Assembly: GCA_046563655.1 (NCBI GenBank)
Contig: CM102285.1
Coordinates: forward strand, 4,960,001-5,024,000
Reading direction: 5' to 3'
Length of the DNA: 64,000 bases
Origin: Yuukianura sp. NJ FZ-2021
Lineage: Eukaryota
Shown here: piece after piece, positions 6,994-57,170 of the stretch
Layout of the letters: each line of letters opens with the position of its first letter
Position numbering within the stretch: position 1 is the stretch's first letter
The notes under the pieces: model-generated
Databases searched by the model: none
Told to the model about the DNA's origin: nothing
Seen by the model: only the letters and a program-made list of their open reading frames with translations
Translations under genes and position numbers: made by a program

Positions 6994-8307
6994 TCGGTCT
7001 CTATATAAAAGAAGTACCAGAGAACATAAAATCACCAGTAAGCGGATAAATGGAAAACTTAGAAATGTGATATAGCGTACCCGAGGCGAGGTGCTTAAAA
7101 TGTTAGTTTGAAACGAAAGTGTCTGATGCTTGATGCAACTTAGGATCTTCCAGTGTTTGTTGACAACCGGTTCAGTATCTCCCAAGATCTATGGTATTTG
7201 TCACTGATTTTAGTTATTCGCGTTTTCACTTTACCGTTGATGTGAAACCGGCCGTACACCATATTTTGATAACTGACGTAAGAAGTTACAATGTTCTGCA
7301 ATAATAATTGTAAAAAGTCATTATTTTATTCCGTCAATCAGAATCAAAACCAGACCAGATGAGATGATGATGAGATGAGAGAAGCGGAGAACGAGAAGCT
7401 GAGGATTTCCTGATACAGTATACAGTGTATATACTACATTTCGCGGAGGTGCCTAATCCGCTGAATCCTATGATTACGATCCATCTTCGGTTACTTTTAT
7501 TTTAACATATACCTGTACATGTGCCATCGGGCGTTCAGCACCGCCCGGACTTGTTTTTTAAGGGTTTTACTGGTATTCCGAGGTGCTTTAAAGCACAATC
7601 CTTTTTTTTTTGTTTTTGCAAAAACAACGCTTTTCACATAAACAATACATATCGGCACTGGTCACATCGTGTGGTTACAAAAAATGGTATTCCGTTGTAC
7701 CTCAACCCACATTTAAAGAATAGGCCCATTGCCTCCTCCGAGTTGAGGTAATGTTGAAGGACGATCATTGTAACCGGAAAGTTTAACCACTTATGGTCAT
7801 CTTGGGTGGTGAGTTGTCGAGTTGTGACAACGGCATATTCCCATATTATACGCAGATGCAGTTCGTATTTATACAGTAACATTATATATCATGTAAAACG
7901 TACTATATCCTATGGGCGCCTTACATCAATCACCCATTTTTTCCTAACCAGTTGCCACAAGCTCAGCCATTCAAAACTACCGCCAATGCGACTACACGGT
8001 ACGGTTACAATTACAACTGTCAAGCCTTACTTCAACAGTAGTCAAGTCTGTTTCCCTCCTTTTCTTTTTGGAAAACTCCAAATCCATACCGTAAACAAAA
8101 GAGAAAAGACTGGCAAGTATTTTATTCGGAAGCAGCAGAATTAACCACAATCTACTGCAGCAGAAGGTTAGTCACTTAAGTAATGGGTGAAGCGCTGGTT
8201 GAGGCATTTGTTTCAATATATTTCAATTTTTGATTTGGCTTGTGAAATTCACAGGGTAAAAATCTTTTTCCGGTATCCCCGCAACCATTTTGAAGCTATA
8301 AAACGCT

Positions 8308-10150
8308 ATGAATAACAAGAGATCCAGAAACAGAACTCTGCGAGAGAGACAACCACGAGTAGTTTCCGAGAACGGACGGGTCCTTGATTTTTTAAATGAA
8401 CCCGAGTCCGCAAGCACTGATGTACCTTCTACAGATACCTGGTCCGAAAATGACCGCATCGGACTGGCGAAACGCGTTCTTCATACATCGATTCCATCAC
8501 ACCTTCCTTGTCGCGAGGCTCAGATAGATTTCCTGTATGGATTTTTTAGTTCTCACATTCTGGATAAGATTGGTGGAGGACTTTGTATCTCTGGGTCACC
8601 TGGAACCGGGAAGACTGCTGTCATACATCACGTGTTGGACAAACTTTTGAACCAGAGTAAAGGAATAACAAATCACGACTTCATACCTGTCTTCATCAAT
8701 TGCGTGAACTTGGGGTGCCCAGCTGACATATACGACTCAATTCGGAGTAAACTTGGAATTAATTCAGCAGGAGATGACTTACTACAACGACTTACGGATC
8801 GTTTCACCTCCAGAGGAAAAATGATGTAAGGCTATTTTACAAATGTAGTTTCGAGCACAGCACAGCCTAGTTTCGTGGTAGATTTTTAGTTTAGTTTGTC
8901 AGAGATAATCTCATAATAAGGGCTACTGAATAAGAGCCCTGTCGAAGCCAAAACCTATGGTGTTACTAGCAAGGTCCTACGTGTCCTTAAGTAAGATAGT
9001 TAAAAGCTAAATACTTCGTAGTTGACATTCAGCTGATTTATTATCTTAGACTTTAGTTTGGTTTTTAAAGGTTAGGTTATGGAATTATTGTTTCGGTTTT
9101 GACATATGTTTATGTTTTGTTATTTTTTTTCAGCGTTTTGATTCTGGATGAAATTGACCAACTCTTCGGCACAATTGGAAACGAATGTCTATCCCATTTG
9201 TTCGAAATGACACAAGTGACCAAGTCTAAATTGATTCTTGCAGGGGTTGCAAATTCCCTTGATTTGATAAATCAACTACCATTCATAAGGACTTCCTCAT
9301 CGAATGTGGCATCCAAGCGGAAGAGTTGTGGGGTCAAAGTTGAACGAGCAACATCGACGATCCAGCATTTTCATTTTGCTCCCTACGAACGCGAAGAAAT
9401 TGCTTTAATCCTAAAAACAAGATTAGGAGGCCTCGAACTAGAAGAACTTTTCGATCCTCTTGCGATTAAGCTCGTGGCTGCTAAGGTGGCTTCTTCCTCT
9501 GGCGATATTCGTAAAGCTCTAAATGCCTGTAAGACTGCCTTAGATCAAATGGAGAAAGAAGGAAGATTCAATCTCAATAAAGCCAACGAAACCGGTAAGT
9601 AGTTGATTAAAGACAAGACAATTGCAAACGTATAAACGCAACTTAATATTTACATTATTTTTGTGTTCTTCGTTTAGGTTCCAAAACTTCAAGTCCTGCT
9701 GGAACCACTGCAGTCGGTATACTCCACGAAGGAATTGGTGTTGGATCTGTGGCGAAAGTCTTGAAGCCCAGGAAAGCGGATGTCGATCTTCCCATTCAGC
9801 AGCAACTTCTTCTTGCAACGCTTTTACGAATTCATCACAAGTCGGCTGTGAGTTCCGGTGTGGTATCTCCCATTTCGTTAAGCTCGGTGTACCAAGAATA
9901 CCGAGAGGTTTCTGAGAGGAAAGGATTCGAATTCATAGACATGAGTGATGTTCGGACAATTTTCGCTATGCTGGAGGATCGTTCCCTCGTCACATTTGCG
10001 TCCAGCCGCCCGCCAAAGCCATATCCACGGAAAGGAGTAAGAGCCGTTTGTAACAATTCGCAGAGTGTGGAAGCCGTCATATTTGACCCCAAGAGACTGG
10101 AACTAATGTTAAAAGATTCGGATTTACTGGATTCTATTGTATTTTCTTAG
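8308..10150 (+). CDS. Cdc6: Cell division control protein 6 (AAA+ replication licensing ATPase)
   Basis: Walker A GSPGTGKT, Walker B LILDEIDQL, ILAGVANSLDL, FAPY, KVASSSGDIRKAL and a winged-helix tail LPIQQQLLL. Exons about 8308-8825, 9134-9594 and 9678-10150. Confidence 0.93.
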
Positions 10151-10671: not shown

Positions 10672-13600
10672 TCAGTACGGATGGAAATTTCCGTATGTGC
10701 GGTGCTGCTGCTGCTGAAATCCACCACTGGAACGTGGGTATCCCATGCCCCCACCACTGAAGAAAACGTTAAACAGGTTTGAAGCGTCAAAGTCTGATCG
10801 TCCAAAGCCAGAATCTGGTGAATCTAGTAGATCATGGCCAGCGTCGTAGCGGTTCCTTTTCTTAGGATCCGATAGTACTTCATATGCCTGTCCTAATTCT
10901 TTGAATTGCTTCTCTTGCTCCTTCTGCACAGTTTCGGAGGCAGATGAGTGTCGATCTGAAACAAATGATTGAATACGTTATGTAGGGTTGAATTACAAAC
11001 CTTAATGATTAATGAAAACGTGAATTACCGGGATGGTGAATAAGGGCTCGTTTCTTGTACGCCTTTTTAACATCGTCTTGACTTGCATTCTTGTCTACTC
11101 CGAGGATTTTATAGTAGTCTTTTCGTAGAGCTTTCTTGGCCGCCAACTTCATTTCCTGGATGTATTTGCGGTACTCCGTATTGCGTGAGTCCAACTTCTG
11201 GGCTGCCTAAGGGTTTCAAAAGTTGGTTAGAATGTTCGGCATATATCCAAATTAAACGCACTAGGAAATGTTTAAAGTTGTGTTGTTGCAACTTCCTTGA
11301 AAGCGTTAAAAAAGTCACAATCTTTGAAGGCTAAGAGGGCGTAACCTAAATAAAGGACGCCCTCTGTTTCAACGATTCAACTTTTAGAACGTACCTCATA
11401 GTCTGCTACGGCTTCATTGAACATTTCTTTCGTCTTATGAATGTGTGCCCTATGGAGATGGGCCTTCAAGTACGACGGGTTGAGCTCAATTGCCCGATTG
11501 ACCGTAGTCAAGGCCTCGTCCAACTCTCCCAGCTTCGTAGCAATCAGAGACAAGTTGAGTGACATTTTCGACTCGATCATGCTCTGGTCACAAAAACAAA
11601 CATTATTATCAAAATGGAAACCGGAAGCCGATAATAGAAATAAGGCGATAACATGAAATGAAGGCTTACGTTTGGATATTCGAATGCCTTGACACTCTCG
11701 ATGCATTCCATGAATTTCACACGCGCCTCAGCATAGTTTCCTTTTGAAAAAAGACTAGCAGCCTCCTCGCGTACTTCTTTCAGTTTCTTTGTTCTCTACA
11801 TAAAGAATATACACTGGTTAGAGAGTTAAATCATTTAAAAACCAGTTACAAGAGACGTAACCAATCTGTAAATGTGTTAGAGGTGTAATGAGTATATCAT
11901 GTCAGCGAAATTTTTGGAAACGGCATCCTCAAGGCTTCCAGTTGCAATTTGCAAAACGCGCACCCTTGGATTTCCTCTTATCCCATACCTAATCTTACAC
12001 CCACTTTACTTACTCCCTAAACAGTCACAGTCACAACAGTCACCAACATGTTAAACTTGAAATACAACGCATTACCCTAAAGAAGTTAACGATCAGAGTG
12101 CTGTCAGGAGCAAATTGAAGAGCCTGTTTCAAGAATTGGATTGCTTTATCCAGATTATCCAGATTGTAAAGACAAATGGAGCGGATGTAGTAGGCGTCGA
12201 CGCAGCGGGAATCCAGTTGTAACACTTCCCTGTTTAAAAAAATGGTTATTAGCTAGATATTTCATGCTAACTACTCTTAAACGGTATTTTTTAAATGATA
12301 AACATGACTTACGTGCATAGCTCCTGTGCTTCAGGTGCTCGATTCAGCTTAAGAAGAGTGTCGGCCTTAATCATTTTCAGTTCCATATCTCCGTCCGCAA
12401 TCGCTAACGCTCTTTCGCAATGGAATAACAGCTGAAAATGAGAACATGTTTTAAATACAACCAAAATTACTTTGCTTAGGACAGGACGTTAGCACACTTT
12501 CATCATAAGTTAAATTCCTTGAGGAAGAACTCCGCACAACTCTCCAGCTTCCAGGTTCAGAGAACAATGTCCGGATTTTCCGTACCAAGGAATATTATTG
12601 CGGAGTCGGAGTCAGACACCAGTACGTACTGTCCCTCAGCAGCTATAAACGACCCTCTGGAAATGAGGAATTATGGCGGCTTGTCAAAAAAATAGGTCCA
12701 CAAAAATAAAATTCACCGTTTTTCAATAAAGCGGTTTTCCTGCCACAAGCCACAGATTGTTCAAAATTTTTATTCTTTCACAATTTTGAACTTTTTTCAA
12801 AATTTTGAACATTTTTTGTCAAAATTTTGAAGTTTTTTCAAAATTTTGAACTTTTTCCAAAAACTTTCACTTTTTTCAAAATTTTGAACTTTTTCCAAAA
12901 ACTTTCACTTTTTTCAAAATTTTGAACTTTTTTTCAAAATTTTGAACTTTTTCTCAAAATTTTGAAGTTTTTTCAAAATTTTGAACTTTTTCTCAAAATT
13001 TTGAAGTTTTTTCAAAAACTAACTTTTTTCAAAAATTTTTCACTTTTTTCAAGATTTTTCAAAATTTTGACCTTTTTTCAAAATTTTGAAAAAGGTCAAA
13101 ATTTTGAAAAATCTTGAAAAAAGTGAAAAATTTTTGAAAAATCTTGAAAAAAGTGCAAAATTTTTGAAAAAAGTTAGTTTTTGAAAAAACTTCAAAATTT
13201 TGAGAAAAAGTTCAAAATTTTGAAAAAACTTCAAAATTTTGAGAAAAAGTTCAAAATTTTGAAAAAAAGTTCAAAATTTTGAAAAAAGTGAAAGTTTTTG
13301 GAAAAAGTTCAAAATTTTGAAAAAAGTGAAAGTTTTTGGAAAAAGTTCAAAATTTTGAAAAAACTTCAAAATTTTGACAAAAAATGTTCAAAATTTTGAA
13401 AAAAGTTCAAAATTGTGAAAGAATAAAAATTTTGAACAATCTGTGGCTTGTGGCAGGAAAACCGCTTTATTGAAAAACGGTGAATTTTATTTTTGTGGAC
13501 CTATTTTTTTGACAAGCCGCCATAATTCCTCATTTCCAGAGGGTCGTTTATAGCTGCTGAGGGACAGTACTAGTATTTCAGCCACAAAGGTCAAAACAAT

Positions 13601-16501
13601 AAAAAAGACTACACTTCAAGACTTTTGGTTTATGACGCATCTCAGCTCGACATATGAACAAACTTTTGGAACACCCATAAGGTTTCAGTATCCGTATGCA
13701 ATTGAACAATCAAAAAAACAACCACCAAACAATAGATTTAAAAATGAACCTAGCTAGCAACATAAAATCTCATTCATGCAAAAATAGTTCTAGTGTATCA
13801 AATGTATTCCTTACGGTTCTGTAGTCCTTTCTCTCCTTTAAAGTGTTCATTTCTTTCCGCACTGCTTTCAACGTGACGAGCCTTCGCTCTTCAAAATCAA
13901 ACTTCCCTTTCAAGTTGGATTCCTTAAGATAAGCTATCACGGAATCTGCTCCAACGGTGTCACCAAGAGACAAGTTAGCCCTCAGAAGTCGTAAGTATCC
14001 CTGTTGAAGACAAGTAGTGGATCAAATACCGCTTACATTCAGACGTGGGCACCTAGGGTATGTAGGGTATGTACGGAGGGGTCTGGGAGAATTTGACAGG
14101 TCGGAGGGGGTCCGCAAAAATTACAAGATCGGAGGGTTTTGAAGCGACTTTGAATGTCCAAATTCAAAATTTCGCTGCGCCTAACGGCGCAGTTTCATTT
14201 GATTCCGATTGGGCTTCAATTTGCAGGGCGGGAGGCAATTTTCTGATGTCAAATACAAAATTTCTCTGCGCCTAACGGCGCAGTTTTATTTTTCCTCTCT
14301 GGTTTACCTTCAATTTGCGTGGTCAGCAGTGACTTTCGAACGTTCAAATCCAAAATTTCTCTGCGCCTAGCGGCGCAGTTTCAGTTTTATTCCGGTTTAC
14401 CTTCAATTTGCGGAGTCAGAAGCGACTTTTGCAAGTTCAAATCCAAAATTTCTCTGCGCCTAACGGCGCAGTTTTATTTTTCCTCTCTGGTTTACCTTCA
14501 ATTTGCGTGGTCAGCAGTGACTTTCGAACGTTCAAAAATCCAAAAATTCTCTGCGCCTAACGGCGCAGTTTCAGTTTTATTCCGGTTTATCTTCAATTTG
14601 CGGGGTCAGAAACGACTTTTGAATGTCCAAATCCAAAATTTCGCTGCGCCTAACGGCGCAGCGAAATTTTTTACTCCGGTTAATTTGTTGAGTCGGAAAC
14701 AATTCTCGGATGTCAAATCGAAAAATTTCTTTAAAAAAATGAAAAAAAATACATATTGGTCGGAGGGGGGAGAGGGAACCCCCGGTCGGAGGGGGGCTGA
14801 CATGCCCACTGGTGCCCAGGTCTGCTTACATTACTTACATTATTTCGCATTCAAGACATCCCACCAATCCAAGAAATCATTAGATCACTTACATTGGTAA
14901 AAAGAGGATCCATCTGGATCGCAGTCCGCGCATCAGCTTGGGCTAGTTTATATTTCCTGAGCATGATGTAACAGGCAGACCGATTTCCATAGAAGGAAGG
15001 TTCCGGGATTAATTCTAAAATGTCAGTCACTATAGAGGAAAGCACAGGCCATATGCGATTTTGTGAGTAACACTTACCAATGGCTTTTGTATACAATTCC
15101 AGAGCCTTGTGGTAGTCTTTCGCAACAAAATATTGGTTCCCAAGCTCTTTCAGTTCCTCCGCTTGCCTAAGAAAACACCAACAAAAAATTAAACGAATAC
15201 TTTTGTTACTGTTGCTATTATAAATAGTTTGTCAGTTGTGCCATGCGTCGTTGCTTTTACCTTAAACGTGCTGCTCGTAGAAGTTCTGGTGGAGTAACAT
15301 CTTCGATCTCCTCATCTACAGACATCGCATCTGCTTGAATATCTTTGGAAGTGGATTCTGCATCAAGGGAAGCACTGTTGTGCAGCGGTAAAACTTGGTT
15401 ATTACGGAATGGCTGGGATCTGGACGCCATGTTGTTTTCTTCACTAATTCGACGGTGCTGAACACGAATATGAAAAAAATTTTCACCGGAAATGAAAGGA
15501 AGTATTTTTAATTAATTTTTGAAAATCGTTGTTTTCCCATAAGGCGTAATGTTAACAAAAAAATTTTTGAACGTCATTTTTTTCGTTAGGTTGATTAAAT
15601 TAGATTCAGATAGGTTAGGTTAGGTTAGTTTTCGTTAGGTTAGGTTAGGTTAAATCACTATAGGTTATTCTTTCAAAAAATTTTTTTTAACATTACGCGT
15701 TAAGGCAAAACAACGATTTTCAAAAATTAATTAAAAATACTTCCTTTCATTTCCGGTGAAAATTTTTTTCATATTCGTGTTCAGCACCCTCGAATTAGTC
15801 TAGAAAACAAGATGGCGTCCAAATCCCAGCCGTTCCATAATACCCAAATTTTTCCTTGTGCAGCTCGTCCCCGATGGTAACCTAAACGGAAAAATTCAAA
15901 AGAAAAAGATCGGTATAATCGATTGGCGAGGATTGAGACTCCGCTCCGCTCCGCCATATTTACTGGCTAGAATAGGCACCTGAAACCTGAGTGGCAACTT
16001 AAGTAGCCACTTTAACCTCACCAAGCCTAACCTCTCAGTGTACCCACCCATTGCAGCCACTAAAGACGGCTGGAGTGACTAAATTATACGCTAGAGTGCG
16101 AACCAGTTCTACTAACGTAAAATGACAATGGTTAAATGCGTATCAAGCTGAAGGACAGTGCTTACATCTTTGTCCTCTTCAAACAATGGTTCATCGCATA
16201 CATCAACATCAGAGTCCACCGAGTTCTCAGTTTCCAATTTCACATCGTCGTCACTGTCGCTGAGGTAAATAGTCTGGTTCAACTTTGCGGAATCATTTAC
16301 TTCGGGAACATTTTCAGTTGGGATGCCCTCAATTAGAACTGGGTTGGAGGATGATAGGTGGCCAGACAATTTCGGTTGTTCAAGCTTAGTTCGCCTGCTT
16401 CTTAATTTTCTACTGTTCCTGGGTGATGACTCGTAAACTACTTCAGGCTCATCATCGTCCATCATGTCAATGTCAGTGCTCCGAGGCGCTTTAGTGTCCA
16501 T
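10672..16501 (-). CDS. DNAJC7: DnaJ homolog subfamily C member 7 (TPR repeats plus J domain)
   Basis: TPR exons ([41 protein letters not shown]) and J domain [10 protein letters not shown]...HHPDRH...[21 protein letters not shown]. About 11 exons. Exon 2 (15261-15881) is interrupted by a MITE. Confidence 0.92.
12626..13570. mobile_element. Foldback-type non-autonomous element, near-perfect 945-bp palindrome in a DNAJC7 intron
   Basis: GTACTGTCCCTCAGCAGCTATAAACGACC... at 12626 is mirrored by ...GGTCGTTTATAGCTGCTGAGGGACAGTAC ending at 13570. The interior is TTTTCAAAATTTTGAA-type repeats, also inverted about ~13083. TA flanks both ends. Confidence 0.9.
14040..14824. mobile_element. hAT-type MITE with internal ~93-bp tandem repeats, intronic in DNAJC7
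   Basis: TIR CAGACGTGGGCACC / GGTGCCCAGGTCTG; 8-bp TSD CTTACATT at 14032-14039 and 14825-14832; six copies of the palindromic CTGCGCCTA(A/G)CGGCGCAG unit. Confidence 0.88.
15387..15855. mobile_element. Mutator-like MITE inside DNAJC7 coding exon 2
   Basis: Long imperfect TIRs (~185 bp) with GG...CC ends; 9-bp TSD TTGTGCAGC at 15378-15386 and 15856-15864; central TTAGG tracts. Confidence 0.9.
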
Positions 16502-20900: not shown

Positions 20901-23900
20901 AATCGTCGCAAATGAATTTTCAAACATGGAACCAGAAATTATTCAGAAATTCATTCGTGTACGCACGTTCATCAGGATCAGACACTTGAATTTCAAGCTT
21001 GAAGCTGCAAAATCTAGACACAAGATACTAAAAAAGTCGACTCAGTTCTATTAGTTAATATTATTTCTTACTGGAAGCGAAGCATTTCTAAGCAATAAAA
21101 ATCTAAAAAAAAAAAATTCAAAAATTGGAATTTCTCTATTTAAAATGTTATGACAACGGATTCTTGAAGGCGTGCAAGAAAAGTGAACTTTTTTTCAAAA
21201 TTTAAAAATACTTGAGGTAATACGCAACCTTATAAGGGATTCTTTGTTTACAAACGTTGCATTCTACTATTTTCATTTCTTACACTTTGTGTCTTCATCG
21301 AAGTGAAAACTGATGTGTTTGAGGCCTTTGATTTCTTCATTCTCTTCAACAACATGCATTGAATTCCGAACAGGCGGATTTCGAAAACTTGATAGTCTTT
21401 TCGCTGTTGGACTGGGTATGAGGCCAACTTGTTCCTTCGAACTCAAGGCGTCCAATTTTCTGTCAAAATGGAACCAATAATCTCTTATTATTTTACTTTG
21501 AAATTACTATTTTGAAAGAATTTTTTATGTTACCGATCCAGGGCTTCCAAGCGAAGGCTCACTTGTGCCAAACTGGCAGCCATTTGAGCTGAATCTTTCT
21601 TTTCATGAGTGCAGCACATCAATTTGAACAATCCGGCAAACGAAAATTCAAGTGCTCCCTCCGTGTCATCTTTACCTTCCCGCAGAAAACCAAAAAATCC
21701 GCCTTTAGCCTGTTTTTCTTTCTGTGCCTGGAGTTCCTTCTCCTCTTCCACCAATTCCTGCAACAATCAATTTTGAAATTTGAAACTAAATACGTAATAA
21801 ACTCACGGTAACGAACAAAACACTTTAATTAAGTTGCATCTCTTACCTGCTTAGATTTTACTTTTGGCCCTTCCCTTGTTCCTATGAAAAAATTGAAATT
21901 CCAAAATATTGAAAATTAAACAAAATATTTCTTGCTAAATTACCAAAAAAAATCTTTGAAAATAAAACTAACCCCAGGAGACATTGTTGAGGTTGAATAT
22001 AGAGAAGATGATCAGAAGCAAATACATAGAGGGAATTGTGATGAAGTAGATGAACCCATGCAGTAGACAGCCGATTTCTAGGGGATGCATGATAGCTGAA
22101 ATTATGAAACTGCCGGCAACAACCACGAGAAAAATGGCGGAAGGAGACAGAAGGCCTTCTTCGGCAACGAGCACTGCAATTGCCACCAGAACCGCCACCA
22201 TCACAAGCGCATAGATCACTGACAGAACTTTGGCCATTGACAACTGAGCTTTTGACGTTCCGTAGAAACATACGAATGAAAACAAAGTAACTGGAATCAA
22301 ATTCAGAATCATGCTCAGCCACTTATCCACCCCCAAAACTGAATTTAGCGCGCCAACCAACATCAAGAAAATTGTTCCAGGCCCAAGAACCGTTCCCACC
22401 ATCATGAAGCACTAAAATTGAAAACAAAATATTTTTTAAACAACTTGCAATCATGTTAGAGCATAAACATGGCACATACTTGGTAAGCAATGTATCCATA
22501 CGAAATGTCTGGGTTGACGGCGACTGTTCTCTTAAAATCCGTCAGGACGTCCAAGATGTTGGCAGTGGTTGACGGAACCCAACGCCTGCGCTGATTGTAA
22601 AATTCGTCGAAATCTTCAGGGGCATGCGTAAAGGCGTCACTTGCTGCCGAGTAGTCCACTCGATACCCTTGTTGAAGAATGAGTGTGCAGAGCCATCTAT
22701 CTTCTCCTTGGTCATACTGAACGTAATGTCGTGGTTCCGTTGACACAGTTGTATACTTTGCCATCACATTGTCTGACATCAAAGCTTTCCCTCGGAAAAG
22801 CGAAAAACACCCGGGAGAACATAACACACAACCAAGCACCTGAAATTTAAAAAAATCAGTTTCGAATTTCTAAAATCAGTTTGGGAATAAAAATAAATAT
22901 CCGTATATTTATATATTACGTGCTCAGTTGCTTTTTGCAGCCAATGACCAATGGCATACTCAAATTTCTGATACCACAACATGAGTCCACCTCCACCGGT
23001 TGGGTGAATTCTGCCGCAAGCTGCTCCAAGTTTCGGATTTTTCTTCATCAGGTCAATGAGTCGCTCAACAGCGATTGGTTGAAAGTCGACATCTCCATCA
23101 AGTGCCAAAATAAATGTGTTCCGTGCCCGAATTTCTTTTCGTTCGTCAGCAATTGGCAAATCCATGAGTCGATATCCCAGCAAGTAGTACATGTACATGC
23201 ACTGACTCCATCTTTTCTTATGCCGAATTTTGCTTTTGTCTTTAAGGTGCAGAATCATTTTAGTTTTGCCAGGTAGAGTCCATTCCAGACGACCGCCATA
23301 TGGAGTTGGAATCTTCAGAGGCGGTCGAATGTGAATCGGAACTTGGTGTACTTGTGCTGCAGCCTCATCCACAACTCCAATAAACGTTTTCACAAAATTG
23401 TTCAAAATTTGAGGAGAGTGGTAGTCCTCCGGGTCACTGTAAATACAACAACTAGGTTCAACAGGTTCAAAAAGTTTGCATCCCAAGTTTCTCAAATCAC
23501 CTGAGCTGGAAAGCGTCGTCAAACAAAATGTGTGTTTCATATTCATAGTAGTTTTCAGTAATTTGAAAATGCTGCGCAGCAATCCGACGCACTCCTTGAT
23601 CTTCGTCCATTCTCAGAATACTTTTCATGATTTCCAGCATTTCTTCCTGTAACACCAAAATTTATATCTTAATGAATAGTTGTTAAAAACTATTTGTGTA
23701 ACACTTGATCTAAAGATCTTATAAAACGCAGAAATGTAATGTTTTGGTTAACCTCAGTTTCATGCCACATTGTTGCACACGCGTAGATCCTGGGAATGTC
23801 GTCTATTTCTGTCATGTTCTCATAGCTTTTGCTTCCGTCAGTTTTGTGACCTTTACTTTCAGAGTACTTTTTTCCGCGAATCCTATTGAGAGTCATTGAT

Positions 23901-26320: not shown

Positions 26321-28803
26321 AAATTTGTACTGAAAAATTTAAAACAAATTAGAAAGTGTTCCTTTCAGTCCAATATCACAAGCTCGTACTGCAGACCACT
26401 TCGACCAATTAAATGTTTAAAATTTTTGCAACATTTGAAATAATTGCGAAATGGGGAGTAAGTAGATAGTAGATTGTAGGATTAAATTCGAACAGTATTT
26501 TTAAACTACCAAAAAAATAATTCAGGGTCAGATATAGTATCTCTTCCGAGAAGCAAAGTTCACCAAAATTCCATGAAAAAATGAAACATTCATAGATTCA
26601 GTTTTTATCAAATCGCTGATTCGGAAGGAAATCTTTAAGCCGCTCGTGTTGGAAAACATTTCAAAAGAGGTGCTATCACATCCATTCAATTTGGAATTCA
26701 AACCGCGTTGCGTATTCATTTAATTATAACACTTCAATAATTCGTTTCAGTTGAATTGAGAAATCGAGATACATTTCACAATCATTACGTCAATTTTGAT
26801 ACACCTAATCGGCACCAAAATGGAAAATTATTGGCAACAGTCTATTTTTTCTATTCGTGCTAAACGAACGTATGTTTTTCAGTTTTTTTTTCTCCGAAGC
26901 GTTAAGCCAATTTAATCTTCACAGTTAATCAAAGTAGGTATTCAGTGATATAACCGGCGCAATAATTCCGACGGAAATGCATCTTGATCAATATGGCAAG
27001 TGAAACGATGATGCTAGGTATGTTTTGGTTGACCCAAGAGTCGTCCCCATTTCTCCAAATTTTTGCGCCTGACACGTGACACATCATTTTCCTTTTTGTC
27101 TGAGGTATAACTATGAATAATATAGTTCGATCAAATACAACACCTCACGCACTATTTGATCTCAATGGATCCTCAGCTATACGCCCTAAAAGTTCAGGGC
27201 CCACGTCACACTTTTAGGCCCAGAACATGTCGTTGAATACAAAAATAAACTGTTACACCTAAATATACTGGTACTGAGCTGAGAGCCCCAAAGTGGGACC
27301 CTCTAATGGTTTAAAGTCGGTGAAATAATAATTGTGTCAATAATCATTAAAATGAATGAGAAACTAATAATTTGTGTCAATCCCAATTGGTCCAATTTAC
27401 TTACACATTGTGAGGTCGGTCAGGGGACAAGCCTTAGTGTAGTGCTGAAGTTTTGTAGTACGTACTACAATACTCGGAAAAAGTTTACTAATTTGAGTTA
27501 TTACTTTTGTCTAGACTAGTTTGATGGTTTTCAGCGTGTTGGGTAAGAATTTATCCACGGAGACCCAACTTTCCACTATTTTCAATTTTTTTTTTCAAAA
27601 TTTTGAAAAAAGAAATGTTAAAAAACGACTTTATATTTGCTCCGATTTGAATGACATTCATTTTCCAGAGTAACTCGTGGGTGCTGGAACCGATTCTGAA
27701 ATTAAATTCAGCAAATATCTGCAATTAACCTAACCTAACCTAACTTAATGTAAACCAAATTCCAATTGCAGGTTCGAATGCTCGAATTAACCTAGAAAAT
27801 GAATTTCATGAATTTGGAGCAAAGAAAAGTTTTTTTTTTGAAATCTTAAAAAATAATTTTTTTTTTGCAAAATTAAAAAAAACTTCTTTTTCCGCGGTCA
27901 AATTTTTACTTAATTGATTCCATTGTAGAAGTACAAAAAATTTTGACAAAAGTACTGTAGTAATCCACAATAGTAAACTTTTACCCAATCCTCTTCTTAA
28001 CTAACCAATGAATAGACTTGCTTCTTAACCTAGTACATAGGGGTTATATATTATACTTAAATAATTAAAGTTAAATAATCCACGTTAATTAAATAATCCA
28101 ATCGTCTGTGGCGTGGTTACTGATATTTATTAAATTAGTCCATAGTTAAAATATCCAGGTTGGGTGAAACTGGAATAACCTAAGTAGCTGCGGTTAATTA
28201 GCTTCAACTCCGCCCTCGTATTAAACGTAACTACTACTAATTTGTAAAACCGCGAATTATTTTTGTAGTGCGTTTGACACCTGTCGCCTAACCATAGTGA
28301 TAGTGGAAATAAGGCGTTGGGGAAAATGCCGGAGAAGCATTGCTGTCGAGTAGGGGTCGCAGACTCGTCCGGTTTTTCAGAAGCGAGTTTCGAGTCCAGA
28401 ATTTGGGCGACGAGTCTATACTCGAGTCTCACTTTGAACCATATTATTCCGGGAATTAAAGAGAATGGAATGACTACAGATTAATACCAGAATGCGAAGC
28501 ATTCTTGTTGGGGATCGCCCCAGACTCACTATGGTGTTAGAAATAAAGTCACGAGAAATTGCTGGTATATTTTTTCCGAAAGAAAAAGCAGAAAATTAAT
28601 TTTATTGAAAATTTTTAAAATTTAAATACATTTGGTGTACTTAGTTACATTTAAAATGTATCTTCCGCTAAATATATTTTTCGTTCTACTATTTTTATTA
28701 CTGAACTGAACGCTATCCAAAAAGGTCCTGCTGTTGAAATTCTAAACTTAAGTTTAAACTATTTTAATGGTTCATAACAAATTTTATTCCTAACGTTTTT
28801 GCC

Positions 28804-52561: not shown

Positions 52562-55050
52562 TTGGTGCCCGATGCAGGGGGAACATTCTATCAGGTACCA
52601 ATTTCACTACTAATGTAATTAGGAATCATGGGGAACGAAATGTACTCACTGACAAGTAATAGATTTTTATGTAATCAGTATCAAAAAGTACAAGATGAAC
52701 CAAAATAATAACTTGATTATAAACGGCTGAAGGGCCATCTACACTGCGTCTGCGCCGTTTTGTTACTGGTAGTATTAGTTAGGTAAAAACTTTAGTGAGG
52801 GTAAAAACTGGCACCATCCATAAAGTTCTGAATCAGAACTACGAAGTTAAAAAACACTTATTTGTGAAGGATTCATGATGAGAATTTTGAAAATGAGGGT
52901 ATACTGAACACAATTCAATTAAAAATTGTAATAAGGTCAGGAATTGAAAAACTCAACAGCAAAGTCCTGTGCAGTTAGTCTTTGTGCGGAAGGTTCCGTT
53001 TTGTGTTTAGGCATAGCATATAACCGTTACTATACTCTGCTGTAGATAGACTCACGCCTCAAGAATGACGTCAAATCAGAGGCGAAAGTATATCCATCAA
53101 GGGGAAGTAAGGCTATAGGCAGACAGAGTAATACCTTCAGACAAGGACTACTAACATGGTATATGTTTCTTTCAACTTTTACTACAAAGCACTCTATAAC
53201 AAATTTATTTTCGATCCGGCAGACAGTTTCTATAAATGAGTACCTTCAAATGACTTAGTCAACGATTGAGCAAAAATTGTTCCAAGAATGTAATATCATC
53301 TAAAACTTTCTGAATCATTGTTCTTTATTGCAATTCTTTAGTAAAAAGTACTCACTGGCATTTAATTCAATTCTTCAAGAGATGACGAGTTACCCTCTAA
53401 ATCTTGATAGCTATTACAGGGCTATATAATAACACATGTTATAGTAAAACGGTACTGTAGCAATAACAAGGCTGGCATATAATGGATCCTGCATCCTTAA
53501 GGCTTAGAGGACAGCATAGAATAACGATTCACTTAACATTGTCATTAGTTAGCCCACTTTTCACTCTCACACTACATCAGCTAAATTGGTAACAAAAATT
53601 TTACAGACTAGTGGTTCAAAAGTAAGCATGCCACTGGTTCAAAAATTAGTTGGTTCGGGAGCTTAAGTGGTTCAGAAACATTAGGTTAAATGTGTGTTTT
53701 AGGTTTGGTTATTGGTCCTAATTTTTGAGCCGTTGGGTTTTGAACATATTTAGCTAAAATAATGGCATGGAACCGTTCAAAAACAGGACTACGTAAACTG
53801 GATTCCCATACACACATAGCCATCCGAAATCAGTTGCTTGCGAAATTGCAGCTTACATATACTTTGAATTTTTACGAAATTTGTCATTTAAAAATCTAAA
53901 AACTCAAAACTAAATATCTCCTGTTCCTTTCAGTAAATCCTTTTAACGTATATAAGGTAGATGGCCCAGTCAGTGTGGAGAGTTACAGTATATATGGTTG
54001 CTATGAGAAATAGGAGATTTGCCAAAATATTTTTTTCGTTCCAACCTCACAAAGATCAAACGGTATAAATTTTAATTAATGCATACTTTGAGTACCGCAC
54101 ATGAGTAGCCTAGGAGTTATATATGGTAGCATACAACACCCTATGGAGTACGAAACGACCATTACCGTTGCCATGGGAAACGAGATCAAGCATAAATATA
54201 CACGCTCTGAGTTTTATTTTATTTGGGTCTACCTAATTTCTATTATTTTAGTTATTTTAAAATAATAAGCGTGCAATTTATTTAAAGATTTCATTCTTTT
54301 AAAAATAATTTTCCATCCAGGTCATACACGCGTAGAATGCCAAAAATAGGTAGAGGATCAACTAGAAAAACCAGGAAGCGCGCGATAAAAGGAAAAATGC
54401 TCATACCAGTTTTTGCATAGGCACTGATATTCTCTAATTTTAACATAACTTTACCCTACTTAAAGTTGGCAAGTTGAATTGGCAAACAAATAAATGGAAC
54501 AAACAGGACGCGTGCAAGGTTTTCTAGTAGTTTCGCTCAAAATAAAATCGGGGAAGGAATTGGCTAACTAAAAAAAAGGGCGGGGATAACCTACTGACCT
54601 CAATAGGTTTCCTACCAATAATGTCCAAGTTGGCAAGTATACCAGGAATTTATCCGATCCCCATACATATACAAAAGATTAGGAAATCCATGCAAATTTG
54701 ACACCCAACTCAGAGTATGGAAATTTGTCGGGACATTAAGAAAAAAAAAGAAAGGGGTGGGATTGAAATCATTAGAAAAAGTTTTCAAATACCCGAACAC
54801 AGCATTTTTGGAATCCAGAACCAATAACTCTGTCAAATCCTCCAAGGGTTTTACGGGATCAATCAGTAAAACACAGTCAGCAATTTACAAAATCCAAACT
54901 TGACTTCACGACAATCCGGAAGGAGTAATTCCAGGTATCAGGTATCATTGTCCAACGATACTAGAACACCCTCAAGGTAGAATCCGAATCATTTTCTCAT
55001 TCGATTCAGTAAATACAGGACAACTGGCTTTAGCATTGCAGCCTGTAGCC

Positions 55051-55785
55051 ATGTCCGCTAAAGTTAAGCTACCTAGATTTTCAGGAGAGTCAGGCGAAGA
55101 TGTGCTTACGTTTATAACTAAATTTGAGCTTGCATGCGCAGCCAATGACATACCTGCAGGGAAAATGGCAATAACTTTAACCTGCCAATTAGATGGAACT
55201 GCAGAAGCCTGGGCGGTTGTCGAAATTGATCGCTTGAGACGCGAAGCGGCAGGAGTAGCCGTCACCATAACGTACAATCAACTTCGATCAGACCTCATTC
55301 GCATTTTTGGTAACAAAGATTCACTGGCCGCTGAATTAAAATATAAAGATCGCAAACAACAAATACATGAAAGCATTGAGAAATATGCATATGAATTGTT
55401 AAAATTAATTCAACAATATGATCCAACGATGAATGAGGAGAAAAGAGTTAAGTATCTCATCAAAAACTCCAGACCGTCGTTTTTGAGTCAAATATCTCTG
55501 TTGAACCCAAAAACGACGGAGGAATTTTTGAGAATAGGGCGAGGCATTGAAGACACCAATCAAATCATTGCGCATCACCGCGATGTCAATGTTTTAACAT
55601 ACGCCCTTGAATCTACCGTTAGTAAAGACAAAGAAATTTCAGACCTTGGTGAAAATGTCAAAAATTTACAAGTCTTAATGGCAATGCAAGAGCCGGTCAC
55701 TGAGCCGGAGCCGGAGCATCATGCAAAAAATGGGACTCGGGGGAGCTTTCAGAGGTCCAGCTACCCCGGGACTCAATTTCAGTAA
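55051..55785 (+). CDS. gag: Retrotransposon Gag (capsid-like)
   Basis: LPRFSGESGEDVLTFITKFE...LDGTAEAW...RKQQIHESIEKYAYELLKL is a retrotransposon gag-domain pattern. Confidence 0.85.
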   Translation: MSAKVKLPRFSGESGEDVLTFITKFELACAANDIPAGKMAITLTCQLDGTAEAWAVVEIDRLRREAAGVAVTITYNQLRSDLIRIFGNKDSLAAELKYKDRKQQIHESIEKYAYELLKLIQQYDPTMNEEKRVKYLIKNSRPSFLSQISLLNPKTTEEFLRIGRGIEDTNQIIAHHRDVNVLTYALESTVSKDKEISDLGENVKNLQVLMAMQEPVTEPEPEHHAKNGTRGSFQRSSYPGTQFQ

Positions 55786-55928
55786 CGACCTCCATTCAAC
55801 CAAAGTATAAATTATGTTCCGAGAAACCGCAATCTGTCTATGACATATCGATTCCCGTAGCGACCATCCTAACGAATACGCCAAAAGATCATGAGTCAAC
55901 TTTTCATCAATACGCACCAATAGTTATC

Positions 55929-57170
55929 TTGACAGTCGGGACGGGTCATTTATTAATAATTACAGGTTTTATTAACCAAATGCAAGTACCCATTTTACTC
56001 GATACAGGTGCATGTGCTCGCATAGTATCATCTGAATTAATCAATCCGCATAATATTCAGCAGTTAAAGCAAAAAATAGCATTGTCTAGTATTACCATCA
56101 AATCAATCGAACCTTCTGGTAGCTCTCATGTTTCCATTCAAATGGGAAGGGAAATATTTCTACATTCAATGCTTCTACTTGAGGACTTCATATTAAAAGC
56201 ACTAGTGGGAGCAGATTTCCTTGAAAAAGCTAAAATTCAAATTAATTATTTAGACAAGACAATCAAGGTGGAAAGCACCGTATTGGCTATGGGCACTACC
56301 GGCAACAATAATCATGAACTCAATCAGGTTAACATCGCTACTGTAGAATTAGGAAACAGAGATCAAGAGAGACAACCACAAGCTTTTAGTCCACCCCAGG
56401 TGGAGGAGAGTGATAGGGGGAATCACACTCCTAATAGTACAGAGGAGCAATTAAACACGAGTCAAAGGGTTAAGCCGTACGCAGAGACAGAGATTCAGCC
56501 AAACACAGGCATTCATCAACAATTTTGTAAACAAATAATACTCACATCACTGACCGGTCATGAGGAGAAAGTGATCTGGAATACACCACTTTCTTCTATA
56601 ACGGATCCTCAGTGGAAAGGAGGTGAAATTCGTTCCAGGCCACTTCCTCTTTTCAAAGAAGAAGTGAGTATTTCTATGAGAGAAGAAAATGAGAGTAGCG
56701 ATGACATTAATGAATTCAATGAAAAACGAGTCTTACATCAAATTGGTATACATACGGTTACCCCATTTTTGAATAAATGGAACAGGAAAACTGATACACA
56801 AAGTACCGTTTTGTCCACAGAAATGGAGGCACAAGCAAGTAAATTAAATATTACTCACGCCCATTCTTTACAACTTGAGACTTCGGAGATTGATGAAACC
56901 AAACCAGACTTTGACATAAATCAAGTACCACAGGCATTGTATCAAACTCATATCGAACATATATACGTGTGCAGAAATACAGCGTTGACTCATGATCAGG
57001 TTCGGGATTTAAAACACTTGCCTTTTGAATTTCCCGCCATTGACTGAAGAACAAATTGACATTGCTAATAACATACATGCAAGGTCAATTAAACACGAAT
57101 CACCCCTAGCTATTAGTCCCCAAAGGACACGGCCTAAGACCACATGGCTTAAAAATTATGAAACTGAACA
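55929..57170 (+). pseudogene. pol: Truncated pol: aspartic protease followed by a probable integrase-tail remnant; RT, RNase H and IN core absent
   Basis: ILLDTGA and ALVGADFL protease motifs. No YxDD or DDE region in any ORF of the track. SPQRTRPKTTWLKNYET at ~57115-57165 resembles the RxxRxxxPxWLxDY ending of Gypsy pol. Confidence 0.7.

Follow-up and report, generated by a model that had tools for sequence, protein, structure and literature searches.

The 64,000-nt window analysed here (Yuukianura sp. NJ FZ-2021, contig CM102285.1, positions 4,960,001 to 5,024,000; all coordinates below are those of the window) contains a whole DNAJC7-like gene on the minus strand at 10672-16501, and coding exon 2 of this gene is interrupted by a MITE (miniature inverted-repeat transposable element) at 15387-15855. 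The original prediction made from this DNA had held that the element carries its own in-frame rescue signals, and that its family behaves like introners, i.e. transposons that create introns. Contigs from related organisms carry the same site without the element, as assembled the insertion breaks the full-length open reading frame (ORF), and the candidate rescue signals, with one exception, are of the kind found in shuffled sequence. We therefore favour as the most probable reading that this is an ordinary young insertion of a Merlin-type MITE into an exon, in a poorly conserved linker, and that it carries no evolved rescue signals.

Host gene and site of insertion

The gene model was drawn by aligning three relatives, which were themselves found with the last exon, and has 11 coding exons separated by 10 GT-AG introns. 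The three relatives, all of them JGI proteins (P0002, 684 aa; P0003, 640 aa; P0005, 707 aa), align along all exons. In the encoded protein, a TPR array precedes a C-terminal J domain, the HPD motif of which is split by the last intron, and P0002 bears the DnaJ and TPR Pfam families. Of the named clusters in the ESM Atlas, the nearest three are DnaJ homolog subfamily C member 7 or member 7-like (score 0.97); two of the three are mainly arthropod, and the named DNAJC7 clusters are 462-532 aa long. A sequence search of the PDB returned DNAJC3 as the best structure and no DNAJC7 chain among 58 matched sequences, and this search fails as a means of separating DNAJC7 from DNAJC3. Because the Atlas clusters name DNAJC7 or DNAJC7-like proteins while the best solved structure is DNAJC3, we refer to the gene as DNAJC7-like, and by these similarities it would encode a TPR/J-domain co-chaperone of an arthropod.

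Coding exon 1 (16166-16501, minus strand) starts with the ATG at 16501, comprises 112 codons, ends in phase 0 and is followed by the donor GTAAGC at 16165. When the 112 aa of exon 1 were compared with longer proteins, none of 140 candidates was significant; homology to the N-termini of the relatives surfaced only in tblastn with P0002 and P0003, and residues 33-144 of P0002 align to exon 1. Coding exon 2 as assembled spans 15261-15881 (minus strand) and is 143 nt long without the insertion. Just downstream of the insertion, EIEDVTPPE(L/I) is kept in P0002 and P0003. In the stretch around the insertion point, P0002, P0003 and P0005 fail to align with each other. This failure to align shows that the insertion, judged by these relatives, sits in an acidic linker of poor conservation, upstream of the entire TPR/J core; the linker lies between the lineage-specific N-terminal extension encoded by exon 1 and a conserved segment leading to the TPR core.

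The N-terminal extension is itself a feature of the gene. It measures ~150-200 aa in the window gene, P0002 and P0003, with the recurring motifs DDDEP.V, an arginine-rich run and LSDSD(D/E)D, and the named arthropod DNAJC7 clusters are without it.

Translation of exon 2 as assembled proceeds for 28 codons and then meets a TAA inside the element (15797-15795, minus strand), and the full-length ORF is broken at this point. Removal of the element together with one copy of its target-site duplication gives 641 codons with 0 internal stops and the natural stop at the end, and every other exon of the gene is undamaged. Both the premature stop and the clean exon after removal agree with what had been predicted, as does the position of a MITE inside a coding exon of a DNAJC7-like gene, on which the terminal repeats, the 9-bp duplication and the gene model converge. 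Skipping of exon 2 was considered as a rescue and rejected, since an exon of 143 nt without the insert cannot be left out without a frameshift, and stops follow. A native in-frame ATG downstream of the insertion (15323-15325, minus strand) opens an ORF of 503 codons that covers the whole TPR/J core and has a length within the size range of the named DNAJC7 clusters.

Structure of the element and the empty site in relatives

With a length of 469 bp, the element is non-coding and bounded by a pair of terminal inverted repeats (TIRs) of 181 nt each, which are separated by a spacer of 107 nt and are 91% complementary. The arm at 15387-15567 is the 3' arm in gene orientation, and the arm at 15675-15855 is the 5' arm. 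In register, the arms are identical at 165/181 positions, and positions 68-149 are identical throughout. The central loop (15568-15674) contains an array of TAGGT/TTAGG pentamers at 15611-15652. The termini are GG...CC, with both ends beginning GG(T/A)AAAA (GGTAAAA and GGAAAAA), and beside each end lies one copy of a direct 9-bp duplication, TTGTGCAGC on the plus strand (15378-15386 and 15856-15864), the two copies matching at 9/9 positions. The inverted repeat and the duplication are certainly above chance.

In the available part of PMC8101967, Merlin elements are described as having TIRs of 24-462 bp, a terminal 5'-GG and duplications of 8 or 9 bp. The element studied here has the terminal 5'-GG, a 9-bp duplication and 181-nt TIRs that fall inside this range. 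Likewise, it has the properties of a MITE, i.e. TIRs, a duplication at both ends, a length of 469 bp without a transposase, and a family of multiple copies. By structure, it is thereby shown to be a non-autonomous DNA transposon with a Merlin-type build; it shares the 5'-GG, the 8/9-bp duplication and the TIR length with the MITEs of the Merlin superfamily, whereas a transposase partner is absent from the window. Mutator-type elements make duplications of 9-11 bp, and such an origin stays a candidate for the 469-bp element. The outward ORF of the TIR, of 41 aa, had 0 matches among 1.84 billion representative proteins.

The window holds no other copy of the family, and a single structurally similar element was found at 27476-27985. 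This 510-bp element shares the terminal motif (GGAAAAAG... / ...CTTTTACC), and the 8-bp duplication beside it matches at 7/8 positions (CAATACTC / CAATCCTC); it probably belongs, as an older member, to a related family of the Merlin type. A metagenome scan with a 22-letter TIR pattern yielded only two loci and no insertion contexts: L001 is a chance-like 23-nt match, and L002 is a solo 81-nt fragment of 85-89% identity without a second arm.

The original prediction had named comparison with the empty allele or with orthologues as a test beforehand. Five DNA contig runs contain at most 0.49 of the sampled words, and four of these were compared. Contigs from X1, X4 and X5, which represent two samples, two studies and two organism labels, join 15377/15378 straight to 15856/15857 and thereby skip 478 nt, i.e. 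the 469 bp of the element plus the 9 bp of one duplication. At the joint, 8-9 letters fit both sides, leaving one target copy and no footprint, and the contigs of X4 (1989 nt) and X5 (2604 nt) have at least 167 letters on each side of it. Because the related contigs carry exactly the predicted empty site, the insertion is, on this comparison, real and specific to the lineage of the window.

Insertion into one assembly only could also reflect a misassembly or a somatic, non-heritable event, all the more as no run of the source organism was among those compared (best word share 0.49). We regard this as extremely improbable: the TIR element is complete and has the perfect 9-bp duplication precisely at its two ends, and therefore transposition rather than misassembly is indicated.

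Elsewhere, the empty-site contigs differ from the window by ~2.5%, and most of the differences recur across runs. Thus, the lineage of the window is ~2.5% diverged from both samples, and the empty sites are orthologous ones rather than alleles of one population. Among the differences listed, exon 4, which encodes part of the TPR core, has four that recur, all of them synonymous, exons 2 and 3 have none, and exon 1 has three non-synonymous and three synonymous differences as well as one 3-nt indel. Dating of the insertion from the divergence of its two arms was rejected, because the arm differences may have been inherited from the source copy.

In the related DNA runs, word depth over the TIR arms is ~3-30 times that of the flanks and is very high over the central loop; the contigs run into other flanks, and a contig that belongs to a different locus agrees with the final 86 letters of the element at every position. 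Given the excess depth over the arms and the match at another locus, the family is, as read from these runs, multi-copy in the relatives, and it has probably been active there recently. None of the contigs listed, beyond which there were 449 further pieces, bridges a junction between flank and element, and this has no bearing on whether the filled allele occurs in these samples.

Splice-like and start-like strings in the element

Three frame-preserving routes past the insertion had been proposed on the minus strand, and their coordinates proved correct throughout. The first is an internal intron, with a candidate donor GT at 15842-15843 in the 5' arm (first intron base 15843) and a candidate acceptor AG at 15375-15376 (first exon base 15374); its use would remove 469 nt, leave 9 additional nt and give 644 codons in frame. 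The second is a candidate acceptor AG in the 3' arm (15458-15459), which is in frame with exon 1. Splicing from the exon-1 donor at 16165 to the first exon base 15457 would give 659 codons, in frame to the natural stop, in a product that gains 23 whole TIR-derived codons and a junction codon (P) across the end of the element and loses VTIGDE. The third is an in-frame ATG in the same arm (15430-15428), which opens an ORF of 538 codons. The outward frame is open in the opposite arm too (plus-strand ORF 15731-15880), again as predicted. Ribosomes that terminate at the premature stop were judged unlikely to reinitiate at the TIR ATG, because five other ATGs intervene.

Splice sites were scored with a position matrix built only from the gene's own 10 introns. 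In leave-one-out scoring, native donors (n = 10) reach 3.7-8.8 and native acceptors -3.1 to 8.0. The internal donor scores 0.2 (63rd percentile among the gene's 294 GTs), and the internal acceptor scores -5.8. By contrast, the TIR acceptor at 15457 reaches 5.8, a value inside the range of the native sites, and stands at the 94th percentile among 336 AGs. Stronger still is the native exon-2 acceptor (13.8 in sample and 8.0 leave-one-out, versus 5.8), which lies 424 nt upstream of the TIR acceptor and outside the stem described below, and is met first.

Just two GTs precede the stop. Combined with the AGs of the open downstream frame, they make 36 GT-AG pairs, 14 of which are in frame, and 4 of the 18 alternative acceptors for the exon-1 donor are in frame; both fractions are near the one-third expected by chance. 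The element was shuffled 2000 times with its dinucleotides preserved. An in-frame internal pair that equalled or surpassed the best observed one arose in 1227 of these shuffles, an in-frame ATG in 307, and a downstream frame that stayed open over 83 codons or more in 123. All three kinds of route occurred together in 253/2000 shuffles, so their co-occurrence is no more than chance provides. Moreover, the element in reversed orientation contains 35 in-frame internal pairs, the best of which has both sites at 5.8 or above, and thereby outdoes the real orientation.

The sole signal above chance is the T-rich acceptor TTTTTTTCATATTCGTGTTCAG that ends before 15457. An in-frame alternative acceptor scoring at least 5.8 was found in only 26/2000 shuffles; this number flatters the observed site, since shuffling breaks the T runs that are typical of such repeats. 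The acceptor is found in both arms, because the arms are one sequence, and once the acceptor is taken as given, the odds of its falling in frame are one in three. Altogether, a MITE in an exon that its removal restores, and a good acceptor at 15457, are the parts of the original interpretation that hold. The claim of in-frame rescue signals of the element's own is not borne out, given the random-like scores of the internal sites (0.2 and -5.8) and the 253/2000 shuffles with three routes, and we found no support for an introner-like family.

An introner reading would have the element's own sites (15843/15374) confer a new intron. The pair is in frame, and pairing of the TIRs would bring the two sites together. 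In addition, introners with TIRs and duplications of 3-9 bp are known, and the accessible text of PMC9860276 reports introners in 175/3325 genomes, copepods included. Nevertheless, we consider this very unlikely. Apart from the weak sites, and from the 1227/2000 shuffles with an equally good pair, the donor is base-paired in the stem, and the related lineages lack an intron at the corresponding site. Removal of the element together with one duplication is the clean canonical excision expected of an introner, and here none of the ten equivalent starts of a 478-nt intron reads GT (GC, CT, TG, GC, CA, AC, CA, AA, AG and GG); therefore, no canonical intron can cut out the element exactly.

The predicted fold of the RNA from 15900 to 15340 has an energy of -271.8 kcal/mol, compared with -105.7 ± 6.2 for shuffled sequences (z = -26.6; 0/100 fold as well). 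The predicted stem spans the full length of the arms, and encloses both the internal donor and the TIR acceptor.

Fate of the transcript and comparison with known systems

In the reading that we favour, a transposon inserted into coding exon 2 and broke the full-length frame. The spliceosome would most likely take the strong native exon-2 acceptor, and the mRNA would then bear the element as a 181-bp hairpin together with a premature stop. Residual function, if any, would come from minor products, i.e. from the TIR acceptor at 15457 (659 aa), alternatively from the downstream in-frame ATGs (538 or 503 aa), or alternatively from excision by the host triggered by the hairpin. Long hairpins are substrates of Dicer-2 in insects, which would reduce the amount of mRNA further. 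We infer that the splice-like and start-like strings of the TIRs are by-products of an AT-rich palindromic repeat and not evolved signals, and that the 469-bp element is not a specialised introner. The insertion would be tolerable because it lies outside the conserved core, and the insertion allele may be polymorphic and mildly deleterious.

Several observations weigh against this reading. The transcript fates set out above are deduced from sequence. The TIR acceptor is in frame, occurs in both arms and is better than chance gives in shuffles (26/2000), and could be in real use. The matrix is built on 10 introns, and the native acceptors themselves range from -3.1 to 8.0; a low score is therefore no firm ground for excluding a site. 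Finally, the ~2.5% of shared differences would also fit an insertion that a separate species has carried in fixed form for some time, and this would speak for tolerance or rescue.

Exonisation through the TIR acceptor would give such a rescue by the spliceosome: 15457 would be used instead of 15881, nonsense-mediated decay would clear the read-through form, and the stable mRNA would encode the 659-aa protein. The score of the acceptor, its frame and its scarcity in shuffles speak for this. We nonetheless think it rather improbable, as the native acceptor is stronger and comes first, the TIR acceptor is buried in a long stem, and its frame is a one-in-three matter.

A different rescue is known as SOS splicing. 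According to the available portion of PMC12779559 (Zhao et al., Nature 2025), the trigger is base-pairing of terminal repeats, and the process is independent of GU-AG and needs AKAP17A, CAAP1 and RTCB. Elements are excised from exons and not from introns, at sites in or near the inverted terminal repeats that are rarely GU-AG; excision is imprecise, with just a subset of products in frame, and function is rescued only for elements in poorly conserved regions. In the present case, the 181-bp TIR duplex would be recognised, the element would be cut near the TIR ends without GU-AG, and the mRNA would be religated by RTCB. This would leave small indels, with about one-third of the products in frame, and these would be tolerated in a non-conserved linker. 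The exonic position, the long pairing arms (-271.8 kcal/mol) and the linker are all as expected for such a substrate, and a gene called AKAP17A is listed in the part of a crustacean transcriptome paper that was available (PMC13163145). On the other hand, demonstrations of the process come only from a nematode and from human cells, the available text of PMC12779559 contains neither "Drosophila" nor "arthropod", and the same text indicates that alleles of this kind seem to undergo purging with time. In a literature search that included Drosophila, "SOS splicing" and AKAP17A occurred together only in PMC12779559 and its preprint. For SOS-type excision as for use of the TIR acceptor, the case here is one of sequence and not of transcripts, and we hold excision of this kind to be possible but unlikely.

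Judged by its sequence features, SOS splicing, and not an introner, is the closest known rescue mechanism, and the locus has every prerequisite that can be seen at that level. The likeness to the elements of PMC12779559, in the text available, lies in terminal repeats that pair, in the position within a coding exon and in the weak conservation of that stretch of the protein; the differences are that the Tc1 arms there measure 54 nt versus 181 nt here, and that the host is an arthropod, known here through its DNA. There is some chance, albeit a small one, that the insertion is a natural and recent substrate of hairpin-directed, non-spliceosomal excision in an arthropod, with the TIR duplex rather than any GT/AG string removing the element. 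If this were true, a transposon could last within a coding exon and might turn into a new intron.

Ds, dSpm and Tc1 are spliced from exons through cryptic sites, imprecisely and with small in-frame changes, and the spliced RNAs were observed. Imprecise removal that leaves small in-frame changes is what the present locus would have in common with them, the difference being that it is known from DNA. The introners of Micromonas and others (PMC11282704 and PMC9860276, as far as their available text goes) resemble the element in being MITE-like, with TIRs and a duplication, within a gene. They comprise many near-identical introns with splice sites supplied by the element and its duplication, whereas here the proposed sites are weak and exact removal by a canonical intron is impossible. 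The MITE-derived non-canonical introns of Fritillaria borealis and the non-conventional introns of euglenids share TIR pairing and boundary duplications with the element, again in the available part of PMC11282704; those systems have adapted or separate removal machinery and thousands of introns, and there is no sign of either here.

Other repeats are present in the introns of the DNAJC7-like gene. Intron 5 contains a 945-bp foldback element (12626-13570), with arms of 462 nt that are 98% complementary and 21 nt apart; it is built of 19/39-nt tandem units, has the termini GTACTGTCCC and shows no clear duplication at its ends. Intron 4 contains a tandem array (14141-14661) of a 95-nt unit repeated 5.6 times, or a 190-nt unit repeated 2.7 times, with 80-89% matches. 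In intron 1, 15985-16081 has a very high word depth in all four related runs, with contigs going into unlike sequence on both sides, and is another dispersed repeat; at 16102-16104, related contigs carry 79 other letters. Outside the gene, a minus-strand chitin synthase exon (22779-23612) has 69-77% identity to the rows listed, which include insects, Artemia, Tigriopus and Folsomia, and 51% to a mollusc; no named relative came closer in these rows, and the organism is an arthropod. By eye, neighbouring plus-strand exons at 8302-10150 resemble a Cdc6/ORC1-type AAA protein, and the translations of two long plus-strand ORFs at 54904-57047 (293 and 447 aa) resemble retrotransposon gag and protease.

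On present evidence, the element in exon 2 is simply a young insertion, and its "signals" are what chance provides. Exonic insertions of DNA transposons with a known empty orthologous site bear on how MITEs give rise to new introns, and also on how widely SOS splicing, which was found in 2025, operates among animals. The locus offers a natural test case for both, in that it combines a conserved chaperone gene, a linker that looks dispensable and a very long stem with defined alternative products of 644, 659, 538 and 503 aa.

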